Source: a virus. Taken from it: a stretch of DNA of 64,000 nt. The DNA lies in IMG/VR virus record IMGVR_UViG_3300032157_000004, positions 17,874 through 81,873 of that record, one strand, 5' to 3'. A model generated the notes under the pieces. The model had not been told where the DNA came from and searched no databases. It saw only the letters and a list, made by a program, of their open reading frames with translations. Numbering within the stretch: position 1 is the first letter of the stretch; each line of letters begins with the position of its first letter. Below are positions 5,703-19,022 of the stretch, one piece after another. The position numbers were made by a program, and so were the translations under genes.

Positions 5703-6263
5703 TTAGAGCGGAAAACTCTCGTCGCTGCTCAACTCATCCGGTGCAGGTCGGCGCTTGCGGCCCTGTGCAGCCGCCTCTTGTGGTTGGCTGGCGCTGCGTG
5801 CCGGAGCCGCTACGGGCGCAACATCAAAATCGTCTGAGTTGCCATCGGCGTTGCTGTCGGAGCCAAAGTCATCTACAGAGCCGTTCTGCTCAATCATCTT
5901 GGCGCGGCCCGCATCGTTCGTGAAATAGCCTTTGATCTTGTTCTGGTCTGCGCCGTTGTATTCTTCAATGCTGATACGGGCATAGCACTTCTTACCCTTA
6001 TAGAAGCGGTAGTCGAACTCTTTGCCCTCTGGAATTTCTAGGGCTGAATTGAGGTTGTCGAACTTCCACTGGGTTTCCGGCGTAAAGACCAGATGGTCAT
6101 TGAACAACTTACCGATAGGCTTGCCGTTAGCAATAGCAGCAATGGAGAGAGTGATCATGTCGTTGCCGCTCTTGGACGTACCCTCTTTGGAGTCCACAAT
6201 GGCAATCTGGTAGATACCCTCTGCGAGAATACTGGAACCTCTTGAAACGATCTTACGTGGCAT
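5703..6263 (-). CDS. DUF669-like single-stranded DNA-binding protein
   Basis: LAEGIY...SKSGNDMITL...FNDHLVF...EEYNG..NKIK pattern; acidic flexible tail ending SFPL; next to an AAA ATPase and an exonuclease. Confidence 0.65.
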   Translation of the reverse strand: MPRKIVSRGSSILAEGIYQIAIVDSKEGTSKSGNDMITLSIAAIANGKPIGKLFNDHLVFTPETQWKFDNLNSALEIPEGKEFDYRFYKGKKCYARISIEEYNGADQNKIKGYFTNDAGRAKMIEQNGSVDDFGSDSNADGNSDDFDVAPVAAPARSASQPQEAAAQGRKRRPAPDELSSDESFPL

Positions 6264-9583: not shown

Positions 9584-10990
9584 CTATTCGGAATAGTGTG
9601 TTGAATCATCGTCAGTCAGGTACAGAACTTCAACGTCTCTTTGAGTTGAAAGCGGTCGAAGTTTAGCTTCTTCCATGATTACCTGTTTGAGTTGAATCAA
9701 CTCAACACCATCGGAGTGCTGGACAGTAATCGTGTCAAAGCCAAAGTTCATTATGGGGTCGAATTCCAGCAGCATGACTGACTCTTTCACTTGTCGTTTC
9801 TCCTTCATATCAGGCTTGCGGTTGCGTGTCGAGTACAGCATCTTGGCGCGGATAGCACGAAAGCTATACCCGCGACCCAATCGGTTGACGACTTTGGCGA
9901 CGCCATTCAAGGCTTCCGTGACAGCATTGGTGACAGGATGATCAAAGTAAGCAAAGGCTTCGGCCTCCCAATTGGTGAGTGCAGTCATGAGATCACCGAA
10001 TGCCCAGGCCAGATCGTTGGCGCGGACTTCTGCGGCCCACTCTCGGTAGTGAATTATGGCGGTTTGTTTGTCTGTCTCTGTGTCCCACAGGTCGTAGATG
10101 GCTTCCTTGAGTTCGTAGGCAACCGCCAATTCAGGGAAGGTTTCCAACCAAGTAGCCAGCAGAATTGTCTTATTGGGTGGCAACTCAGACCGGCGACGAA
10201 AGAGCAGGAACCTATCGTGCATCAGGGTACGACGTTGCCGGTCGGTCAATCCCTCTCTGATACGCTTGCGAACCTTGTCAATGGCCTGGTTTGCCATTCT
10301 GACGACATGGAATTTGTCAATGACGATGATTGCCTGTGGAAGCACGGCCCTGACAGCATCTCGATAAGGTATCCACATATCCATTGCGACCAATTCAATT
10401 TGGTCACGGTTGGGCAGGGCCATAAGTCGCTTGGCTACCTCTGGCTTTTTTCGACCAGGCAGGATGTCAATGAGTGTGCGAGCCTCAACATTGGTCAGCA
10501 CGCAACGGGCATTGCCAAGAAGATGCAACTCGTCAATGCCCAACCATCGTGGCGTGTTGAACTGGATGGCTTGTTCCAAGTGGTCAACGTGCCGACCAAA
10601 AATGTTACGAATAGTGCCTTCATCTACCCCAATGTCGGCGGCCAGGCTGGTAAAGGTACGTTCCAATGCCTTTGTCTGTACCCATTTGACCAGTCGTTTT
10701 GCTGCTCTGTGGTGGTCATCCAGATCGTCAAGCTGCTCAAAGAATGTGCGCTGGCACTCAAGGCACTTCCACTTCTTGCGCTGCACCAACAGTCTGACTT
10801 TCTTGCCGTGGATGGGAAGATCGCGGAATGGTTGATGCTTCGTGCCGTAACGATGCAACTTTGGATGGATGACGCCACAAGACAAGCAAACCTCTGGCTG
10901 CACTGTGTACCGAGCCTTGATGATGTATTCGTCGTGGGCTTCTTCGACCTCGGTTACGTCCCACTTGGGGAGGTTGAGAATGTCAGTCAT
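9584..10990 (-). CDS. ISL3-family DDE transposase
   Basis: Zn finger CLSC...WKCLEC, GIDE, VAMDMWIPY, IDKFHVV, TNAVTEALN; stop codon falls inside the terminal IR. Confidence 0.93.
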   Translation of the reverse strand: MTDILNLPKWDVTEVEEAHDEYIIKARYTVQPEVCLSCGVIHPKLHRYGTKHQPFRDLPIHGKKVRLLVQRKKWKCLECQRTFFEQLDDLDDHHRAAKRLVKWVQTKALERTFTSLAADIGVDEGTIRNIFGRHVDHLEQAIQFNTPRWLGIDELHLLGNARCVLTNVEARTLIDILPGRKKPEVAKRLMALPNRDQIELVAMDMWIPYRDAVRAVLPQAIIVIDKFHVVRMANQAIDKVRKRIREGLTDRQRRTLMHDRFLLFRRRSELPPNKTILLATWLETFPELAVAYELKEAIYDLWDTETDKQTAIIHYREWAAEVRANDLAWAFGDLMTALTNWEAEAFAYFDHPVTNAVTEALNGVAKVVNRLGRGYSFRAIRAKMLYSTRNRKPDMKEKRQVKESVMLLEFDPIMNFGFDTITVQHSDGVELIQLKQVIMEEAKLRPLSTQRDVEVLYLTDDDSTHYSE

Positions 10991-11836: not shown

Positions 11837-13546
11837 TCAGTATTCCGAATAGCCATTTTTTTTCTTATCAAAGACCGCCAGTAAATCGGCGGCTGTAACC
11901 TTTTTAATCATTCCCACTCGGTAGTCTAGGGTTGAATGAATGAGATGATCGATGGTCTGGTAGCCGTCAACGGTAACAGACCGCATATTGACAATGACTG
12001 GGGATTCGGTTGTTCCAATCCTACGGTTTCTGTGTAGACACTGGAAGTAAGAATCATCGTACATCCGTTCAACAAAAAATGCCGTTCTCGCTTTGGTGAG
12101 TGTGAAGCCGAATTTTCCAACTTGGTTATTAAGCACCAGAACATCAAGTTCTCCGTTCTGGAACGCATCTACCATCTTGTTGCGATCTTCCATCTTCGTA
12201 GCGCCGTTGGCGAGAGCCACCCGCTTCTTAATCTTGCTGAAGTGATCTCTCAACAACTCACCTGTCTTGATGAAATTTACCCACACCAGATAAGGGCCAG
12301 GATAGAAACTCATCAGTTCCGGTAGAGCATCCCACTTTCCCGCCGAATCGACACCACCCACCAAGAGCGGGTTAGAAGCAACTTGAACAGAGCGCACCAT
12401 CAAACTTAGATGGTTGTTGACTGTGACGTACTCACCAGGATCGACTGTTGCTAATTCAACCCGTAACTTTTTTCTCAGTTCTTCGTAGGCTGCATCCTGC
12501 TTGGGCAGCATGGGGATATTGATATCCTCCATGATCCAATCGGGAATGTCGGCAACATCGTCTTGGGTACGGGAAAAATAAATGTCAGCAAAATTTTTCT
12601 TGATTTCTTTTTCTGCGTTGGGCTTGTTAGCAACCAGCTTACTGCCCCACTCATCTTTGTTTACTATAACATATTTCTCGACAAATCTCCAGTAGCTCGG
12701 ATACCCTTTAGGCTTGAGAATGTGGAATTGATGCCACATATCATCCAAGAGTTTTGTCGCTGGAGCGCCTGTGAGAAGCCAGCAAACATCAATCACACTC
12801 GCCAGTTCCTTAATAGCTTTGGAACGAAGGCTGTCATGGTTTTTGTACATGATCGACTCGTCCAGAATTAGACACTCATAAGGCGGATCATAGGCCATGA
12901 ACTCGTTTAGATGTTTGACGACTGTCTCTGGATTGGTGATACCCCACCAAGCTTCACTATCTTCTAACAATGTACCGCCGCCCAACCCTGATGTAACTTT
13001 GCGATGCATCACAGCCGGAAAAGGCTTGACTGGCAGCTTATCTCCCCATTTTCGCAACTCGCCATCCCAATAATAAAGAAGGGAAGCAGGACATACTACC
13101 AAAATATTTTTAAAATTTTTCTTTCCCGCCGCATCTGCCGCCGTCAGTGTTTTGCCCAATCCAGGCGACAGGGAGAGCATCGCCCTATCATGGCGCACCA
13201 AAAAATCAGAAGCCTCTTGTTGGTAATCAAACAAGACACTGTTTTCATCCTTTTCCCAAGCTTCGACATAGGGTGGTCGTTCTCGACGCAGCCAATTGTC
13301 AACCTTCTTGGTAGGAACAAAGGAGAGTCCCGACCAGATGAGGTCGTAATAATTCTCTAAGGTAGGGATTGCCATCATAACAAACTGGTCTTTAACCGCC
13401 CTCCAGTTGGTTACTTCTAACAGAACCCTGACCCTCGGATCACCCCAATCCACAGGTCGGAAGATGAGCATACCTTGCGTATACTGCATCCCTAGCATCC
13501 CAGGCTCTAATATTTTGGCTAGTTCTTTAGGAGAGTAATCCTTCAT
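11837..13546 (-). CDS. SNF2-family (SF2) helicase; last codons supplied by the IS end
   Basis: LSPGLGKT, LILDES, LLTGAP, helicase-C motifs; terminal GYSEY* is read from the IS IR. Confidence 0.88.
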   Translation of the reverse strand: MKDYSPKELAKILEPGMLGMQYTQGMLIFRPVDWGDPRVRVLLEVTNWRAVKDQFVMMAIPTLENYYDLIWSGLSFVPTKKVDNWLRRERPPYVEAWEKDENSVLFDYQQEASDFLVRHDRAMLSLSPGLGKTLTAADAAGKKNFKNILVVCPASLLYYWDGELRKWGDKLPVKPFPAVMHRKVTSGLGGGTLLEDSEAWWGITNPETVVKHLNEFMAYDPPYECLILDESIMYKNHDSLRSKAIKELASVIDVCWLLTGAPATKLLDDMWHQFHILKPKGYPSYWRFVEKYVIVNKDEWGSKLVANKPNAEKEIKKNFADIYFSRTQDDVADIPDWIMEDINIPMLPKQDAAYEELRKKLRVELATVDPGEYVTVNNHLSLMVRSVQVASNPLLVGGVDSAGKWDALPELMSFYPGPYLVWVNFIKTGELLRDHFSKIKKRVALANGATKMEDRNKMVDAFQNGELDVLVLNNQVGKFGFTLTKARTAFFVERMYDDSYFQCLHRNRRIGTTESPVIVNMRSVTVDGYQTIDHLIHSTLDYRVGMIKKVTAADLLAVFDKKKNGYSEY

Positions 13547-13904: not shown

Positions 13905-15227
13905 TTACATTTCCCCAGCCTTTTCCATTTCGACAATATAACGGAACACCGACTCTGAGAAGCCGTCGATATGAATCCAGTCACCATAGCCAACGCCATT
14001 TTGGTAGCTGGCAACGTTGATCAGATAGCCCTTGACACCCTTCGGAACCGACAGGATGCCATCATGTGTCTGTTCGTCCGTGATGACGATGATACGGTCA
14101 TACTTGGTCTTGGCGTTGATCTCCTTGAGAGAATTAGCCAGATAAGTACCGCCTCTATTCGACTTTTCAATCGCATCACGCAGCGCAAAACCTCTACGTG
14201 GCGGCACAAGAACAGCCTTGTCAGCGAACGACCACACCTCTACATCATCGCACATTTCACGTCCGACCATTGCCACACCACAGGCAGCGTCGGTGCGTTC
14301 CATATCCGACTTGGCGGAGAGCGGCGCACGCATCGAACCGGACATATCGACCAGGATGACTGTCTTACCCGCCAGCTTCAACTCACCAGCCGCCTCGAAA
14401 AATTTTTCTTCCAAAGCTGGCTCCAACTGCGGCACTTCTCTAGCTGCGGCAATAAAGCGGAAAGGCAGAACACGATAGATGGACATATCGTGAATCGCTT
14501 GCATGATCGTGCCATTATGCACACCCGCCTGTTGCATGTTTCTTAAATTTCTAAGCAGCGCCAACGCTCCCAACTTCTTCTCAACCAGAAGGCGAGTCCA
14601 CTTGTTCAACTTGGACACGCCATCATTTCTGGATAACTCGACTTCCCAGGTGTCAGGAGTCGGCAACTCACCCTTAACTGCTTGACGCCACAACTCGGCT
14701 TGATCTGCATTATCAGGTTCAGGGCGCACGATACGAAACACGTCCTTCAAAGAAACAGACCCTTGACGGTCGTACTTGGCAAGCGCATAGGCGTCAAACT
14801 TACGCAAAGCCTGTGCCAGTCCATCACGAACACAGTGGGCGACAGGAACCTTACCCTCCGCCCAATACATCGCCATGAATTCCATCGGCTCGTCGGCACG
14901 TTGGATCACCTTCGCCAATGTGTCAGCCACATAGGGACGATGTGTTTCATGGCGTGCCATTTCACGAACCAGGAACAGCGGCGCATGGCGCAGCTTCATT
15001 TGCTCTCTGGCTTCGACAGCCATTGCCGCTACCTTCGCCGGAGCCACCAACGGTACACTGTTGGCAAGCCGCTTGGCAATTTCTTGACCATCTTCGTAGA
15101 ATGTCTTTTCCCACAGAAAGCAGGACATCAAAGACCGACGCAATTGTTGCTCGGCGTTGATGCGGTGCGCCTTCCCCCCTTCGTGAGTCAAGATTGGTGG
15201 TTGATTTGGCTTCACGTTTGTTTTCAT
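13905..15227 (-). CDS. rsr: Ro60/Rsr (TROVE + vWA) RNA-binding protein
   Basis: THEGG, LRR..MSCFLWE.TFYEDG, KLRHAPL, FDAYALAKY, PDTWEVELS, ALLRNLRNM, LPFRFIAA; vWA MIDAS DMSGSM and ITDEQ. Confidence 0.92.
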   Translation of the reverse strand: MKTNVKPNQPPILTHEGGKAHRINAEQQLRRSLMSCFLWEKTFYEDGQEIAKRLANSVPLVAPAKVAAMAVEAREQMKLRHAPLFLVREMARHETHRPYVADTLAKVIQRADEPMEFMAMYWAEGKVPVAHCVRDGLAQALRKFDAYALAKYDRQGSVSLKDVFRIVRPEPDNADQAELWRQAVKGELPTPDTWEVELSRNDGVSKLNKWTRLLVEKKLGALALLRNLRNMQQAGVHNGTIMQAIHDMSIYRVLPFRFIAAAREVPQLEPALEEKFFEAAGELKLAGKTVILVDMSGSMRAPLSAKSDMERTDAACGVAMVGREMCDDVEVWSFADKAVLVPPRRGFALRDAIEKSNRGGTYLANSLKEINAKTKYDRIIVITDEQTHDGILSVPKGVKGYLINVASYQNGVGYGDWIHIDGFSESVFRYIVEMEKAGEM

Positions 15228-15251: not shown

Positions 15252-15575
15252 TTAGCCGTAAATCAGCCCAGCTTTACCGCTGACTGTCATCACACGATTG
15301 CCATTGTACTGCTTGCCTTTACGCAAGTCGGGCCTACGTTTAGCCTTAGACAAGACCAGCACAGGCTCGTCGCCTCTCTGGTATGTTCTCGGCGTCAACT
15401 GTCTGTAGCCCTGACTGACAAGATAACGACCATAACAGGCGTTGGCTTCTTGTCCAGTTGAGTGAGTCTTGGGCAAGTGCAGAGAGCGCAAACCCTTATT
15501 GGTTGCGCTAAGAGCCTGTCGTGTCCCTGAACAATGATCAAAAGGTGTATGACACATAAATTTATCTTGGCTCAT
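15252..15575 (-). CDS. Basic Cys/His-containing hypothetical protein between the RNA cluster and Ro60
   Basis: RBS caggagagaaaaccATG at 15575; CHTPFDHC...H.....A..CY.RYL..QGY. Confidence 0.7.
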   Translation of the reverse strand: MSQDKFMCHTPFDHCSGTRQALSATNKGLRSLHLPKTHSTGQEANACYGRYLVSQGYRQLTPRTYQRGDEPVLVLSKAKRRPDLRKGKQYNGNRVMTVSGKAGLIYG

Positions 15576-15676
15576 GGTTTTCTCTCCTGACGTTTTCTCT
15601 AAAAAGTTAATCTCAGCCACACTCTACATTACCACGTACGGCTCAGTCAATCCCCAAATAGCTAAATCTTTCAAAA

Positions 15677-15766
15677 TTTGTTGAGGGAAGAAGCGGCTAG
15701 GGCTTGGTATCAAAGCGTGGTTAGACACTGATAGAGAAGTATCCCTAACCTACACCACTCAACAAA
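15677..15766 (-). ncRNA. Y-RNA-like structured RNA without a tRNA domain
   Basis: Closing stem UUUGUUGAG/CUCAACAAA; core UGGUGUAGG opposite CCGCUUCUUCC; inner helix UUAGGG/CCCUAG; same core as the 16775-17000 RNA; ~450 bp upstream of Ro60. Confidence 0.65.
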
Positions 15767-16396: not shown

Positions 16397-16578
16397 ATAA
16401 GCCTCGAAAGGGAGTTACCCTCTAACGATGTCGGGCATACAGCACCGTCTAGTCTTTCCTAGAAGCCAAGAAACACGTCGCTTAGTGAACGGATTAAAAA
16501 GTAAGCGTTGGTTTTCAGACCTCACTTTTTAATTAACGTAGCCGTACCTGCGGAATATTTTAGGCATATTCATACCAG

Positions 16579-16647
16579 TGGCGGGGGCCGGATTTGAACC
16601 TGCGACCACCCTCTTAACAGGAGAAGTAACCCTTATCTAACACCACC
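16579..16647 (-). ncRNA. tRNA-like RNA (Asn-type anticodon arm and T arm) whose 5' part is the Y-motif instead of a D arm
   Basis: GGTGGTG-TTAGATAAGGGTTAC-TTCTC CTGTTAA GAGGG-TGGTC-GCAGG TTCAAAT CCGGC-CCCCGCCA; no D stem. Confidence 0.6.
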
Positions 16648-16671
16648 GAACAATTCAGTTGTTAAAGTAAA

Positions 16672-16768
16672 CACCTTCGGATGGTGTCGAACCATCTACT
16701 CGGCTTGTCAGGCTTTGCGTATCCCCTCCCTCCAGAGCGACAAACTTCTGTCGAGAGCGACCGAAGAT
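16672..16768 (-). ncRNA. tRNA-like element: acceptor stem plus T arm with a non-canonical middle
   Basis: ATCTTCG/CGAAGGT 7-bp stem, G discriminator, T arm GATGG-TTCGACA-CCATC; inner hairpin CGACA/TGTCG; no canonical D or anticodon arm. Confidence 0.4.
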
Positions 16769-16774
16769 GATAAT

Positions 16775-17000
16775 ATCAGGGGAAGGAGGCGAAAACAGAT
16801 ATTTTCGGTGCTACCGTTACACTATCTCCGCAGACGCTTTAGAGAGTGGATGCCTTCTGTGTCCAGAAGGCACTCTAAAGCTGACTTCAAAAGTGTTAAT
16901 GCTTGCAACGGCCACTTTTGTAGTTTGGAGCGGAGAGTGGGACTCGAACCCACACTCGTCTTTTGGCATAAGAAGTAACTGTTTCCTATCACCACCTGAT
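16775..17000 (-). ncRNA. YrlA-like Y RNA containing a circularly permuted tRNA-Gly(GCC)
   Basis: Closing stem AUCAGG/CCUGAU; tRNA 3' part (anticodon arm to CCA, 16926-16974) precedes the 5' part (GCGGAGA plus D arm, 16807-16831); perfect 7-bp acceptor; promoter puts +1 at 17000. Confidence 0.8.
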
Positions 17001-17006
17001 GACATC

Positions 17007-17035
17007 ACTATAGCATGGCGTCGGCGGCTTGTCTA
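17007..17035 (-). promoter_or_regulatory. Sigma70-type promoter of the RNA-Ro60 operon
   Basis: TAGACA (17035-30), 17 bp, TATAGT (17012-07) with TGn; +1 predicted at 17000, the first base of the Y-RNA stem. Confidence 0.72.
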
Positions 17036-17837: not shown

Positions 17838-19022
17838 TCACACTTCGGTTCCCCTAAGTCCAAGCCGTGCGCTACGCATGTCGTATTTAGAACTCATACC
17901 GCCAGAAAATTGCACAGCATAGGGTGTTCGCATGTCGAACTGTACCGATTCAATTCTGAGCATCCTGGGATCACGATGTAAGTCAGAAAAAACTGGCCCC
18001 AGCCCTGGTAAGAAGTCAGAAAAAAATATCCACTTGCCAGGTCGAATTCGCCAGGGAGAAACAATACTGCCACCAGAGTCGAGAATAAGTCTCCTGGGAT
18101 CGGCAATCTCGATGGTGTAGTCTACCTCACTCGACCCTGGCCCATAGACAGGCTTGCGATTTGAGTAGATGCCAAAGTAATGCCGGATGTTGTTAGCGTC
18201 ACCCATTGCCGTCACACCGCGAATGTGTTCGTTAGCAAGCTGGTCATCGTTCTCGTAGAGCGGCACAGCGGACGTATTTAAGGCGATCTCGCTGTGATCG
18301 CTAGATATCCAGCCTGAGTTAAGATGTGCGCTTAGAACAGCCTTAATGCGGTCGGAGATGGTTATTGTGCCTGTGCCTGGAGTCGTGTAGTTATAGGGAT
18401 AGGTCAATGTCCGATACCAGCCGACGCAGTTGATAGTCAAAGAAATTTCTTCGTTGGAAAAAGAAAAATTTGAAGAAATTTCTGGATGACCATGTTCGGT
18501 CAACCACATATCGACTAGCTGGTCAGAATTGGCGTCAGTCACGCCCGCCAAAGATAAAATTTTAAACCAGATACCCCAGTCGGATTGTGATGCTGTGTTG
18601 TTAACGGTCGGTGTTTTCTTGCGGACACCGATCTGAGGCGGATAAACCGATGTGTCCACACCGGAATAGATTGCAAAAACACGGTTGGAGATATCGGTCA
18701 CTGGCCCTAGTGTAAGGGAAAGTCCTGCCTGATTAACATTGATTGAATCAACAAAACCTTCCCACACCGAGTCTAAAAAATTATCATAGACGATGATAGG
18801 TCGAAACAGACCGTCCTGCACCCACTCGTCTAAAGATGCCTGGTTTTCCGACAAAGAAAAAGAAGCTGTGTCGAAACCGCCGAAAGCATTGATGGTGTGT
18901 CGCCAGTCCTGAACGGAAACGTCTAAATTTCCTCTCCAGTTGCCGCCTTTTGGCAGTCTCTCAAAGTAGGAAATCGTAAAATTTTGACTGGAAAAATTAC
19001 TGCCGATAGACGCCCCAAACAC
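17838..19022 (-). CDS. Minor tail (hub/baseplate-like) protein
   Basis: 394 aa, third gene after the tape measure; call is by position only. Confidence 0.55.
   Translation of the reverse strand: MFGASIGSNFSSQNFTISYFERLPKGGNWRGNLDVSVQDWRHTINAFGGFDTASFSLSENQASLDEWVQDGLFRPIIVYDNFLDSVWEGFVDSINVNQAGLSLTLGPVTDISNRVFAIYSGVDTSVYPPQIGVRKKTPTVNNTASQSDWGIWFKILSLAGVTDANSDQLVDMWLTEHGHPEISSNFSFSNEEISLTINCVGWYRTLTYPYNYTTPGTGTITISDRIKAVLSAHLNSGWISSDHSEIALNTSAVPLYENDDQLANEHIRGVTAMGDANNIRHYFGIYSNRKPVYGPGSSEVDYTIEIADPRRLILDSGGSIVSPWRIRPGKWIFFSDFLPGLGPVFSDLHRDPRMLRIESVQFDMRTPYAVQFSGGMSSKYDMRSARLGLRGTEV

Follow-up and report, generated by a model that had tools for sequence, protein, structure and literature searches.

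YrlA RNAs are Y RNAs of bacteria and mycobacteriophages that resemble circularly permuted transfer RNAs (tRNAs). They are encoded upstream of the gene for Ro60 (Rsr in Mycobacterium smegmatis) on the same strand, and a second, smaller Y RNA is adjacent, as described especially for M. smegmatis (PMC4201824; RF02553; Wang et al. 2018, bioRxiv 10.1101/312249). The paired ends of YrlA form a stem with the Ro motif GNCGAAN0-1G, the presumed Ro contact, close to the 5' end, and YUAY, a V stem-loop, the T arm, the acceptor and the D arm follow in permuted order, with the T arm 5' of the D arm and both of these arms nearly invariant. The V stem-loop is a fourth hairpin of lower conservation located upstream of the T arm in many YrlA RNAs, and it begins with the conserved YUAY (Chen et al. 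2014, PMC4201824). The YrlA of M. smegmatis has an acceptor of 7 base pairs (bp) and is cut by M1 RNA in vitro at the tRNA 5' site; in vivo, a half of 82 nucleotides (nt) ending in CCA and a 65-nt half were both co-precipitated with Rsr (PMC4201824). Here we analysed element A, located on the minus strand at positions 16775-17000 of a 64,000-nt stretch of viral DNA (the window; positions 17,874 to 81,873 of IMG/VR record IMGVR_UViG_3300032157_000004). The window belongs to a soil-metagenome phage contig of 89 kilobases (kb), which CheckV estimated to be 100% complete. Element A is predicted to be a phage-encoded YrlA-type Y RNA with a circularly permuted tRNA-like domain between its two ends, and its acceptor is interrupted by a structured spacer.

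As shown in Table 1, element A shares the plan of YrlA. It precedes a phage Ro60 gene encoded on the same strand, and the locus contains another Y RNA of smaller size. Its paired ends form a bulged stem, presumed to be the Ro60-binding module, and the YUAY, V stem-loop, T arm, acceptor and D arm stand in the permuted order. A preliminary description had read the locus as a circularly permuted tRNA-Gly on a Ro-type stem, and all of the segments that it listed were present on the minus strand where it had placed them, to the base. Between the 5' strand and the returning 3' strand, the stem has helices of 7, 4 and 6 bp. The acceptor forms a perfect 7-bp helix (GCGGAGA/UCUCCGC) followed by an encoded CCA, and the 94-nt linker, called the spacer hereafter, folded alone into two hairpins, as had been described, with -37 kcal/mol. 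The 7-bp acceptor, the 5-bp T stem, the 4-bp D stem, the 7-bp upper helix and the 6-bp basal stem are all intact, and U8, A14, A15:U48, the D-loop GG and the T-loop UUCGA are retained at the tertiary positions. Element A is not decayed, as every helix of the window copy is intact. The hairpin UUCUU/AAGAC, at the position of the V stem-loop, has a 5-bp stem with a U.C mismatch as its first pair and a loop of 7 nt. The D arm is a minority variant, which was also present in the relatives L034, L035 and L038 (L-numbers denote collected loci).

Published YrlA RNAs close the acceptor with a short loop, whereas the closure in element A consists of U-CCA plus the 94-nt spacer (98 nt in total). The CCA is added in M. 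smegmatis YrlA but encoded in element A, where the two-hairpin spacer lies between the acceptor strands. The spacer ends in ...GCGUCU, which places a U at position -1. The acceptor is laid out like the place where two tRNA genes adjoin, namely 3' strand, U73, CCA, structured spacer, U(-1) and 5' strand. The spacer hairpins are flanked by single-stranded UCCA-AACUAC and GUCU, and the acceptor helix does not run on into the insert. Element A also differs from YrlA in the linker of 8-11 nt between the D arm and the stem and in a V hairpin with the full anticodon-loop signature. There was no second copy of the spacer in the phage genome or in about 230 collected loci, and the spacer was rejected as a repeated or mobile element because it was unique in the genome and among the fetched loci.

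In phages and bacteria, more than 200 copies of the lineage were collected, the majority of them next to Ro60 genes. Ro60 homologs with 35-53% identity were found in 66 phage records and 8 IMG/VR contigs, and a clearly homologous RNA adjoins them. A scan with the RNA motif GGTGGYG...TTACTTC...GGTTCGA as its only input gave matches at 51 viral loci and in at least 120 bacterial genomes, including Acidobacteriota, Bradyrhizobium, Caulobacter, Hyphomonadaceae, Bacteroidota and others. A Ro60 gene was present within the few fetched kb in 38 of the 51 viral and 85 of the 120 bacterial loci found in this way through the RNA alone. One match, L154 (Mycobacterium), was a false positive within coding sequence. 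Profiles and pair counts were made from an alignment of 25 members with closed acceptors, excluding the window; a MAFFT alignment that included the window was discarded for pair counts, because the spacer caused the D arm of the window copy to be misaligned. The RNAalifold consensus of the 25 members comprised the basal stem, an upper helix of 8 bp, the T arm, a 7-bp acceptor and the D arm. Compensatory double changes numbered 7-15 per pair across the upper helix and acceptor, and 8-11 in the upper helix. The alignment of homologs that had been suggested as a check therefore showed that the helices formed by element A covary strongly.

The full-length model R1 cannot bridge the 98-nt closure and was replaced by two half profiles. 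The 5' half profile matched element A with E=1.7e-9. For the 3' half profile, the best match in the 64-kb window on both strands was exactly 16818-16777, with E=0.012. Most copies had G15:C48 as the Levitt pair, the window copy and six viral relatives had A15:U48, and in bacteria 63 copies had G:C and 15 had A:U. The Levitt pair covaries across the family, as in YrlA, which means that the window copy's two halves are made to fold into one tRNA-like core. Together, the half-profile matches, the covarying helices and the compensated Levitt pair argue that element A is more than a chance arrangement, and the reading of the locus as a permuted tRNA-like RNA on a Ro-type stem near a Ro60 gene is supported. 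By sequence comparison, the lineage can be placed as a large divergent branch of YrlA, with the window copy as a member with an unusual acceptor.

We consider it likely, with a probability of roughly 0.6 and by analogy with the M. smegmatis precedent, that element A matures into two pieces. RNase P would cleave at 16832/16831, and endo- and exonucleolytic trimming would proceed back to the CCA at 16926. The products would be pieces of 75 nt (17000-16926) and 57 nt (16831-16775), held together by the 7-bp acceptor, the D/T elbow and the Ro-type stem of about 17 bp on the phage Ro60, the presumed protein partner. Three tRNAs (tRNA-Pro, tRNA-Asp and tRNA-Asn) have to be freed from the same transcript, and the enzymes needed for this would also carry out the maturation of element A. 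Opening by RNase P and 3' trimming, as put forward in the preliminary description, is therefore plausible, given the direct precedent of M. smegmatis YrlA, in which RNase P and a CCA end give a two-piece RNA on Rsr (PMC4201824). With its 7 bp, G+1, U-1 and U73-CCA, element A appears to be a more canonical RNase P substrate than M. smegmatis YrlA. Judging from the family, the particle would act like other Ro60/Y RNA particles, tethering or gating Ro60 and, in infected cells, engaging RNA-decay or tRNA-binding factors of the host.

Several observations weigh against this interpretation of element A. Processing might be hindered by the structured hairpins that lie 4 nt before the RNase P site and 6 nt after the CCA. 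The tRNA/Y-type fold had a free energy of -72.3 kcal/mol, 10 kcal/mol worse than the unconstrained minimum-free-energy fold (-82.2 kcal/mol), in which the acceptor-5'/D strand pairs with the returning stem strand. Model R1 did not span element A and assigned a false 3' half at 16864-16900. Rfam RF02553 (gathering score 69 bits) likewise did not detect element A; its best score in the phage was 10.9 bits, on the T arm of tRNA-Pro, and a focused scan of element A gave none. RF02553 has no match in the phage, since the T-acceptor-D core is interrupted by the spacer. On relatives with closed acceptors the same model scored 33-52 bits (E 5e-9 to 1e-3), below its gathering score. The Rfam scan of element A returned no family except sub-threshold tRNA matches. 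The 5' motif, GGUGAUAG, deviates from the published GNCGAAN0-1G at two positions. The motif GGUGGYG-WAG is conserved across all family copies, and the 5' motif of relatives is GGCGAAG (L016, L007b) or GGYGUAG. The Ro-stem strands carrying GGUGAUAG pair, and the corresponding stem covaries in relatives.

The collections contained no close relative of the phage, and the spacer and its CCA are therefore without a comparison sequence. A blastn search of element A against 50,697 phage records gave no match, and the best identities to the phage Ro60 were 53% in viral contigs and 56-65% in metagenome contigs. Only two public sequencing runs held the window sequence, both of soil-metagenome DNA. For the CcrColossus relative, matches in RNA runs came only from wastewater contigs whose RNA-Seq label is doubtful ("probably DNA") and which carried the conserved T arm of other organisms, and one raw-read RNA run had no reads on this relative.

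Three layouts were identified in the family: permuted with a capped acceptor, permuted with a spacer, and unpermuted. Most permuted copies have an acceptor of about 7 bp capped by a loop of 3-8 nt, often a tetraloop. The interrupted-acceptor design of element A was also found in the Caulobacter phages CcrPW and CcrColossus and in L021 and L097, among them a metagenomic phage. The acceptor insert is 34 nt in CcrPW and CcrColossus and 35 nt in L021; each insert starts with A-CCA and contains a hairpin, the sequence of which differs between the CcrPW/CcrColossus and L021 lineages. L097 has a 20-nt insert starting with C-CCA. N73-CCA was present in all true long-spacer relatives other than simple helix extensions. 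Furthermore, at least 8 bacterial copies, from Bradyrhizobium, Rhizomicrobium and relatives, have a 7-bp acceptor capped by the 5-nt loop N-CCA-U, made up of a discriminator, CCA and U(-1). This loop is the minimal version of the N73-CCA plus spacer design. A U at -1 was found in the window, CcrPW, L021 and all N-CCA-U loops. The chance of CCA at positions 74-76 is 1/64 per copy, and it is not random that CCA recurs in three independent lineages with long spacers as well as in the N-CCA-U group of bacteria.

These layouts bear on whether element A may remain in a single piece, with the spacer kept and the 94-nt two-hairpin insert serving as an elaborated acceptor arm, for example as an extra protein-binding module. 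Acceptor length is the most variable feature of YrlA (PMC4201824; bioRxiv 10.1101/312249), and the arrangement resembles the long acceptor stems reported for some cyanobacterial YrlAs. In L049 and L097 (position 2199) the acceptor is lengthened into an uninterrupted helix or hairpin that has no CCA, and full-length M. smegmatis YrlA also persists on Rsr (PMC4201824). The spacer folds stably, and spacer hairpins are kept, with different sequences, in CcrPW/CcrColossus and L021. However, the insert of element A has single-stranded flanks and does not continue the acceptor helix, and N73-CCA, U(-1), G+1 and an acceptor of exactly 7 bp together make up the signature of RNase P and tRNA ends, which occurs in three independent long-spacer lineages. 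We regard retention as a single piece as possible but rather unlikely.

In the third layout, represented by L007:1094-1390 (+), L022:4088-4225, L026, L027, L032 and L071, the order is acceptor 5' strand, D arm, linker, Ro-type stem with a 4-6-nt loop, UUAC, anticodon-like hairpin, T arm and acceptor 3' strand. The acceptor ends of these unpermuted relatives are free, as in tRNA. L007 contains two tandem unpermuted units, each ending in a U-run, and L022 encodes C-CCA. Within L006, the tRNA-Ser(gct) called by ARAGORN at 5831-5904 is the 5' half of a Y-type RNA. The GenBank tRNAs directly upstream of phage Ro60 genes may include similar miscalls, such as L010:2766-2840 in Brevundimonas phage Kikimora and L013:2849-2933 in Microcystis phage Mvi-JY20.

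Dimeric tRNA precursors, from which the origin model of YrlA derives (Sim and Wolin 2018, in the form cited by Wang et al. 2018), also have a T arm, an acceptor 3' strand with CCA, a spacer, an acceptor 5' strand and a D arm in series, as at the junction of adjacent tRNA genes. They differ from element A in that its acceptor strands are complementary to each other and not to partners in their own tRNAs. Element A could accordingly be pictured as a functionless leftover, a recent fusion or rearrangement of tandem tRNA-like genes in which the dimeric-tRNA origin is caught in the act. Its layout is the literal junction that the origin model predicts, tandem units of ordinary topology exist in the relative L007, and the neighbouring element B has no 3' partner. 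The intact helices, the retained tertiary positions and the place of element A first behind the presumed operon promoter make a functionless leftover scarcely probable, and two-piece maturation remains the preferred reading.

Permuted tRNA genes are known from Cyanidioschyzon merolae and other algae and archaea. In these genes (Soma et al. 2007, as cited by Wang et al. 2018), the 3' half comes first, and between the acceptor ends lies an intervening sequence opened by RNase P and 3' processing, a likeness to element A. Their precursors are circularised by a splicing endonuclease and a ligase to give a contiguous functional tRNA, whereas element A has a long bulged stem of the Ro type as its other junction. 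Bacteria are not known to have such enzymes, the splicing endonuclease included (Wang et al. 2018, bioRxiv 10.1101/312249). A further difference from permuted tRNA genes is that the triplet of element A is not conserved in the family.

To characterise the V hairpin, 68 distinct copies with a 23-nt segment from UUA to the T stem were chosen without a pairing filter. UUAC was invariant in the family alignment, and the hairpin came next in most copies. The hairpin stem was paired at 301 of 340 positions, while shuffled controls gave 259 +/- 3.8 (maximum 277), and the inner two pairs covary. The loop consisted of C/U, U (66 of 68), NNN, R (66 of 68) and A/C, which is the anticodon-loop signature Y-U-NNN-R-A, and a class-I-type variable loop (AGGUC or UGGUC) was located 3' of the hairpin. 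The middle triplet was hypervariable, with 30 different triplets among the 68 copies. In the sister phages CcrPW and CcrColossus, the triplet was UAG and CUG, respectively, and the acceptors were identical. The anticodon arm, which had been described as retained in element A, thus has a real resemblance to that of tRNA in its loop signature, but it is the family-wide V stem-loop and not peculiar to this locus. Whether the hairpin corresponds to an anticodon arm or to a variable arm depends on pairing of UUAC with the linker after the D arm. In the solved structure of Salmonella YrlA, YUAY pairs within a kinked anticodon stem (Wang et al. 2018, bioRxiv 10.1101/312249). In our set, pairing between UUAC and the linker was only weakly above shuffled controls, and the invariant UUAC cannot covary.

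The triplet also bears on whether the processed two-piece RNA would be a genuine substrate of glycyl-tRNA synthetase (GlyRS), that is, a glycyl-tRNA mimic tethered to Ro60 and acting as a decoy or an amino-acid donor. Element A contains all of the published bacterial Gly determinants, namely G1:C72, C2:G71, purine4:pyrimidine69 (G4:C69), U73, C35 and C36 (PMC10464925). The CCA is encoded, the phage has no tRNA-Gly gene of its own, and Chen et al. stated that processed M. smegmatis YrlA "could potentially be aminoacylated" (PMC4201824). However, the triplet is hypervariable and differs between sister phages with the same acceptor, and other CCA-encoding members, including bacterial ones, have no match between triplet and discriminator. 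The two other copies with an NCC triplet (L005 and L055) have capped, non-Gly-like acceptors, and in no other family member is an NCC triplet combined with a Gly-type acceptor. If UUAC pairs with the linker, the hairpin would be a variable arm, and C35 and C36 would be misplaced for the anticodon-binding domain of GlyRS, which requires the whole L-shape (PMC10464925). By a rough estimate with no formal test, about 15 CCA-bearing copies and 20 possible identities make one coincidence not surprising. ARAGORN gave no tRNA call at element A, and the Rfam tRNA model scored 22.8 bits there (gathering score 29) in another register (16929-16995). We therefore consider glycylation very improbable.

The full determinant set that underlay the claim of Gly identity is present in the window copy, but neither GCC nor Gly is conserved in the family. 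Homologs without the GCC loop were common, and acceptor complementarity was not lost in them. Since the triplet varies in homologs that keep this complementarity, tRNA-Gly identity is not a family property but a singleton coincidence or a very recent acquisition, and the Gly-type features are best read as incidental.

A broader and decidedly speculative proposal, which we also consider unlikely, is that a sizeable subset of YrlA-type RNAs of phages and bacteria works with an open, CCA-bearing acceptor and an anticodon-loop mimic with a fast-evolving triplet. This open-acceptor subset would consist of the N73-CCA plus spacer copies, the N-CCA-U copies and the unpermuted copies. In the window, the mimic with its full tRNA-Gly set would then be charged, or at least recognised, by the tRNA machinery while on Ro60. 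Its role could be that of a bait or sentinel for defence nucleases directed at tRNA, or of an aminoacyl-tRNA mimic kept sequestered.

For the two-piece reading, the closest phage system is that of Thermus phage phiLo. According to the accessible part of PMC12135203, its Ro60 (phiRo60) binds two phage-encoded Y-like RNAs, Yrl1 and Yrl2, and complexes with host PNPase. The loci are alike in that several phage Y-like RNAs are located upstream of a phage Ro60 gene, and in that host factors such as PNPase are expected as partners of a phage without its own effector; no RtcB and no Rnl2-type ligase were found as RNA-repair partners in the phage studied here. They differ in that Yrl1 and Yrl2 are stem-bulge-stem RNAs with a CGAA motif, and that part of the report mentions no tRNA-like domain. 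A phage Ro60-like protein has already been tied to counter-defence, as the one from Bas63 acts against the defence system ppl (PMC11482910).

Phage and bacterial YrlA-type Y RNAs resembling permuted tRNAs, the V stem-loop, RNase P processing of one YrlA with a CCA end and the dimeric-tRNA origin model are already known. In the literature covered, we found no description of an encoded N73-CCA with a structured spacer inside a Y RNA, and prior mention elsewhere is possible. The same applies to the bacterial N-CCA-U loops, to three topologies in one lineage, and to a V hairpin with an anticodon-loop signature and a hypervariable triplet. The recurrence of an encoded discriminator and CCA in independent phage and bacterial lineages bears on whether a CCA-bearing open acceptor in Y RNAs is an oddity or a designed state, as do the literal tRNA-tRNA gene junction preserved in the window copy, the three topologies and the anticodon-loop signature of the V hairpin. 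The locus and its relatives are also relevant to a possible engagement of RNase P, the CCA-adding enzyme, synthetases or anticodon nucleases by tRNA mimics bound to Ro60 in phage infection.

Table 1. Features of element A and its locus in the window, with the family copies carrying an N-CCA-U loop listed last under their own loci.
Feature	Position	Strand	Basis or remark
Element A, predicted YrlA-type Y RNA with interrupted acceptor	16775..17000	-	Sequence, half-profile matches, tertiary pairs, fold
Ro-type stem, 5' strand	16979..17000	-	Family motif and upper-helix covariation
AUCAGG, basal helix	17000-16995	-	
UGGUG-AUAG-GAAACAG	16994-16979	-	UGGUG pairs with CGCC; AUAG, bulge; GAAACAG, upper helix
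UUAC, conserved YUAY of YrlA RNAs	16975..16978	-	Invariant in alignment; YUAY described in PMC4201824
Anticodon-arm-like hairpin UUCUU/AUGCCAA/AAGAC, at YrlA V stem-loop position	16958..16974	-	Family-wide; GCC at 16967-16965
Variable loop GAGU (4 nt, contains U48)	16957-16954	-	
T arm GUGGG-UUCGAGU-CCCAC	16953-16937	-	
Acceptor 3' strand UCUCCGC (16936-16930), discriminator U73 (16929), encoded CCA (16928-16926)	16926..16936	-	
Spacer, 94 nt, two hairpins (~16924-16884, ~16881-16836)	16832..16925	-	Fold; uniqueness
Acceptor 5' strand GCGGAGA (16831-16825), UA, D arm GUGU-AACGGUA-GCAC (16822-16808), C26	16807..16831	-	Sequence and 3' half profile
Linker GAAAAUAU and Ro-type stem 3' strand (CUGUUUU, CGCC, internal loop UCCUUCC, CCUGAU)	16775..16806	-	Stem strand at 16798-16775
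Promoter-like site TAGACA-17-TATAGT with TG extension	17007..17035	-	10/12 consensus matches
Element B, further copy of the 5' module (stem strand, UUAC, hairpin loop CUGUUAA, T arm)	16578..16654	-	5' half profile, E=7e-16
Small YrlB-like Y RNA, Ro-type stem only, without tRNA-like domain	15679..15766	-	Model R1, 46.8 bits, E=7e-10
Ro60 homolog, 440 amino acids, TROVE and vWA domains	13905..15227	-	TROVE E=2e-18, VWA_2, vWA_Ro60
N-CCA-U copies (Bradyrhizobium, Rhizomicrobium, relatives)	L136:1921-1983, L168 (two copies), L143, L146, L155, L191, L194		

The predicted transcription start of the promoter-like site, at about 17000, coincides with the first base of the basal stem. The promoter is proposed from its consensus match, in a scan that gave 6 sites in total where 3.8 were expected. 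Element A would thus be first behind the presumed promoter of an operon carrying Y RNAs, tRNAs and Ro60. The order downstream of element A, on the same strand, is element B, tRNA-Pro, tRNA-Asp, tRNA-Asn, the small Y RNA, an open reading frame of 122 amino acids and Ro60. The Ro60 gene is located 1.5 kb downstream of element A, within the distance of about 4 kb or less on the same strand used for YrlA. The small open reading frame (15252-15620, minus strand), between the Y RNAs and Ro60, had no Pfam match. A weaker promoter-like site, TTAACA-16-TAGAGT (9/12), was located inside the spacer at 16872-16899 on the minus strand, and the 3' piece would be transcribed separately if it were active. A truly split gene with this internal promoter was rejected, because 9/12 is at chance level for the scan.

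Element B was labelled tRNA-Asn(gtt) by ARAGORN but is really a Y-type 5' module, with GGUGGUG, UUAC, a hairpin and a T arm with one mismatch. Its GGUGGUG can pair at 6 of 7 positions with a CCCCGCC located after its T arm, and element B perhaps reaches to about 16486; no D arm and no convincing 3' stem strand were found for it. An isolated T-arm-like hairpin, GAUGG-UUCGACA-CCAUC, was located between elements A and B at 16680-16696 (minus strand) and may be a remnant of another tRNA-like unit. The small Y RNA has the layout GUUGAG-UGGUGUA-GGUUAGGG ... CCCUAGCC-GCUUCUUCC-CUCAAC, with an apical part of only 28 nt. Elsewhere in the phage genome, a complete ISL3-family transposase was encoded at 9584-10990 on the minus strand (DDE_Tnp_ISL3, E=4e-60, with a helix-turn-helix and a zinc ribbon), and a SNF2-type helicase was located near it at 11837-13546.

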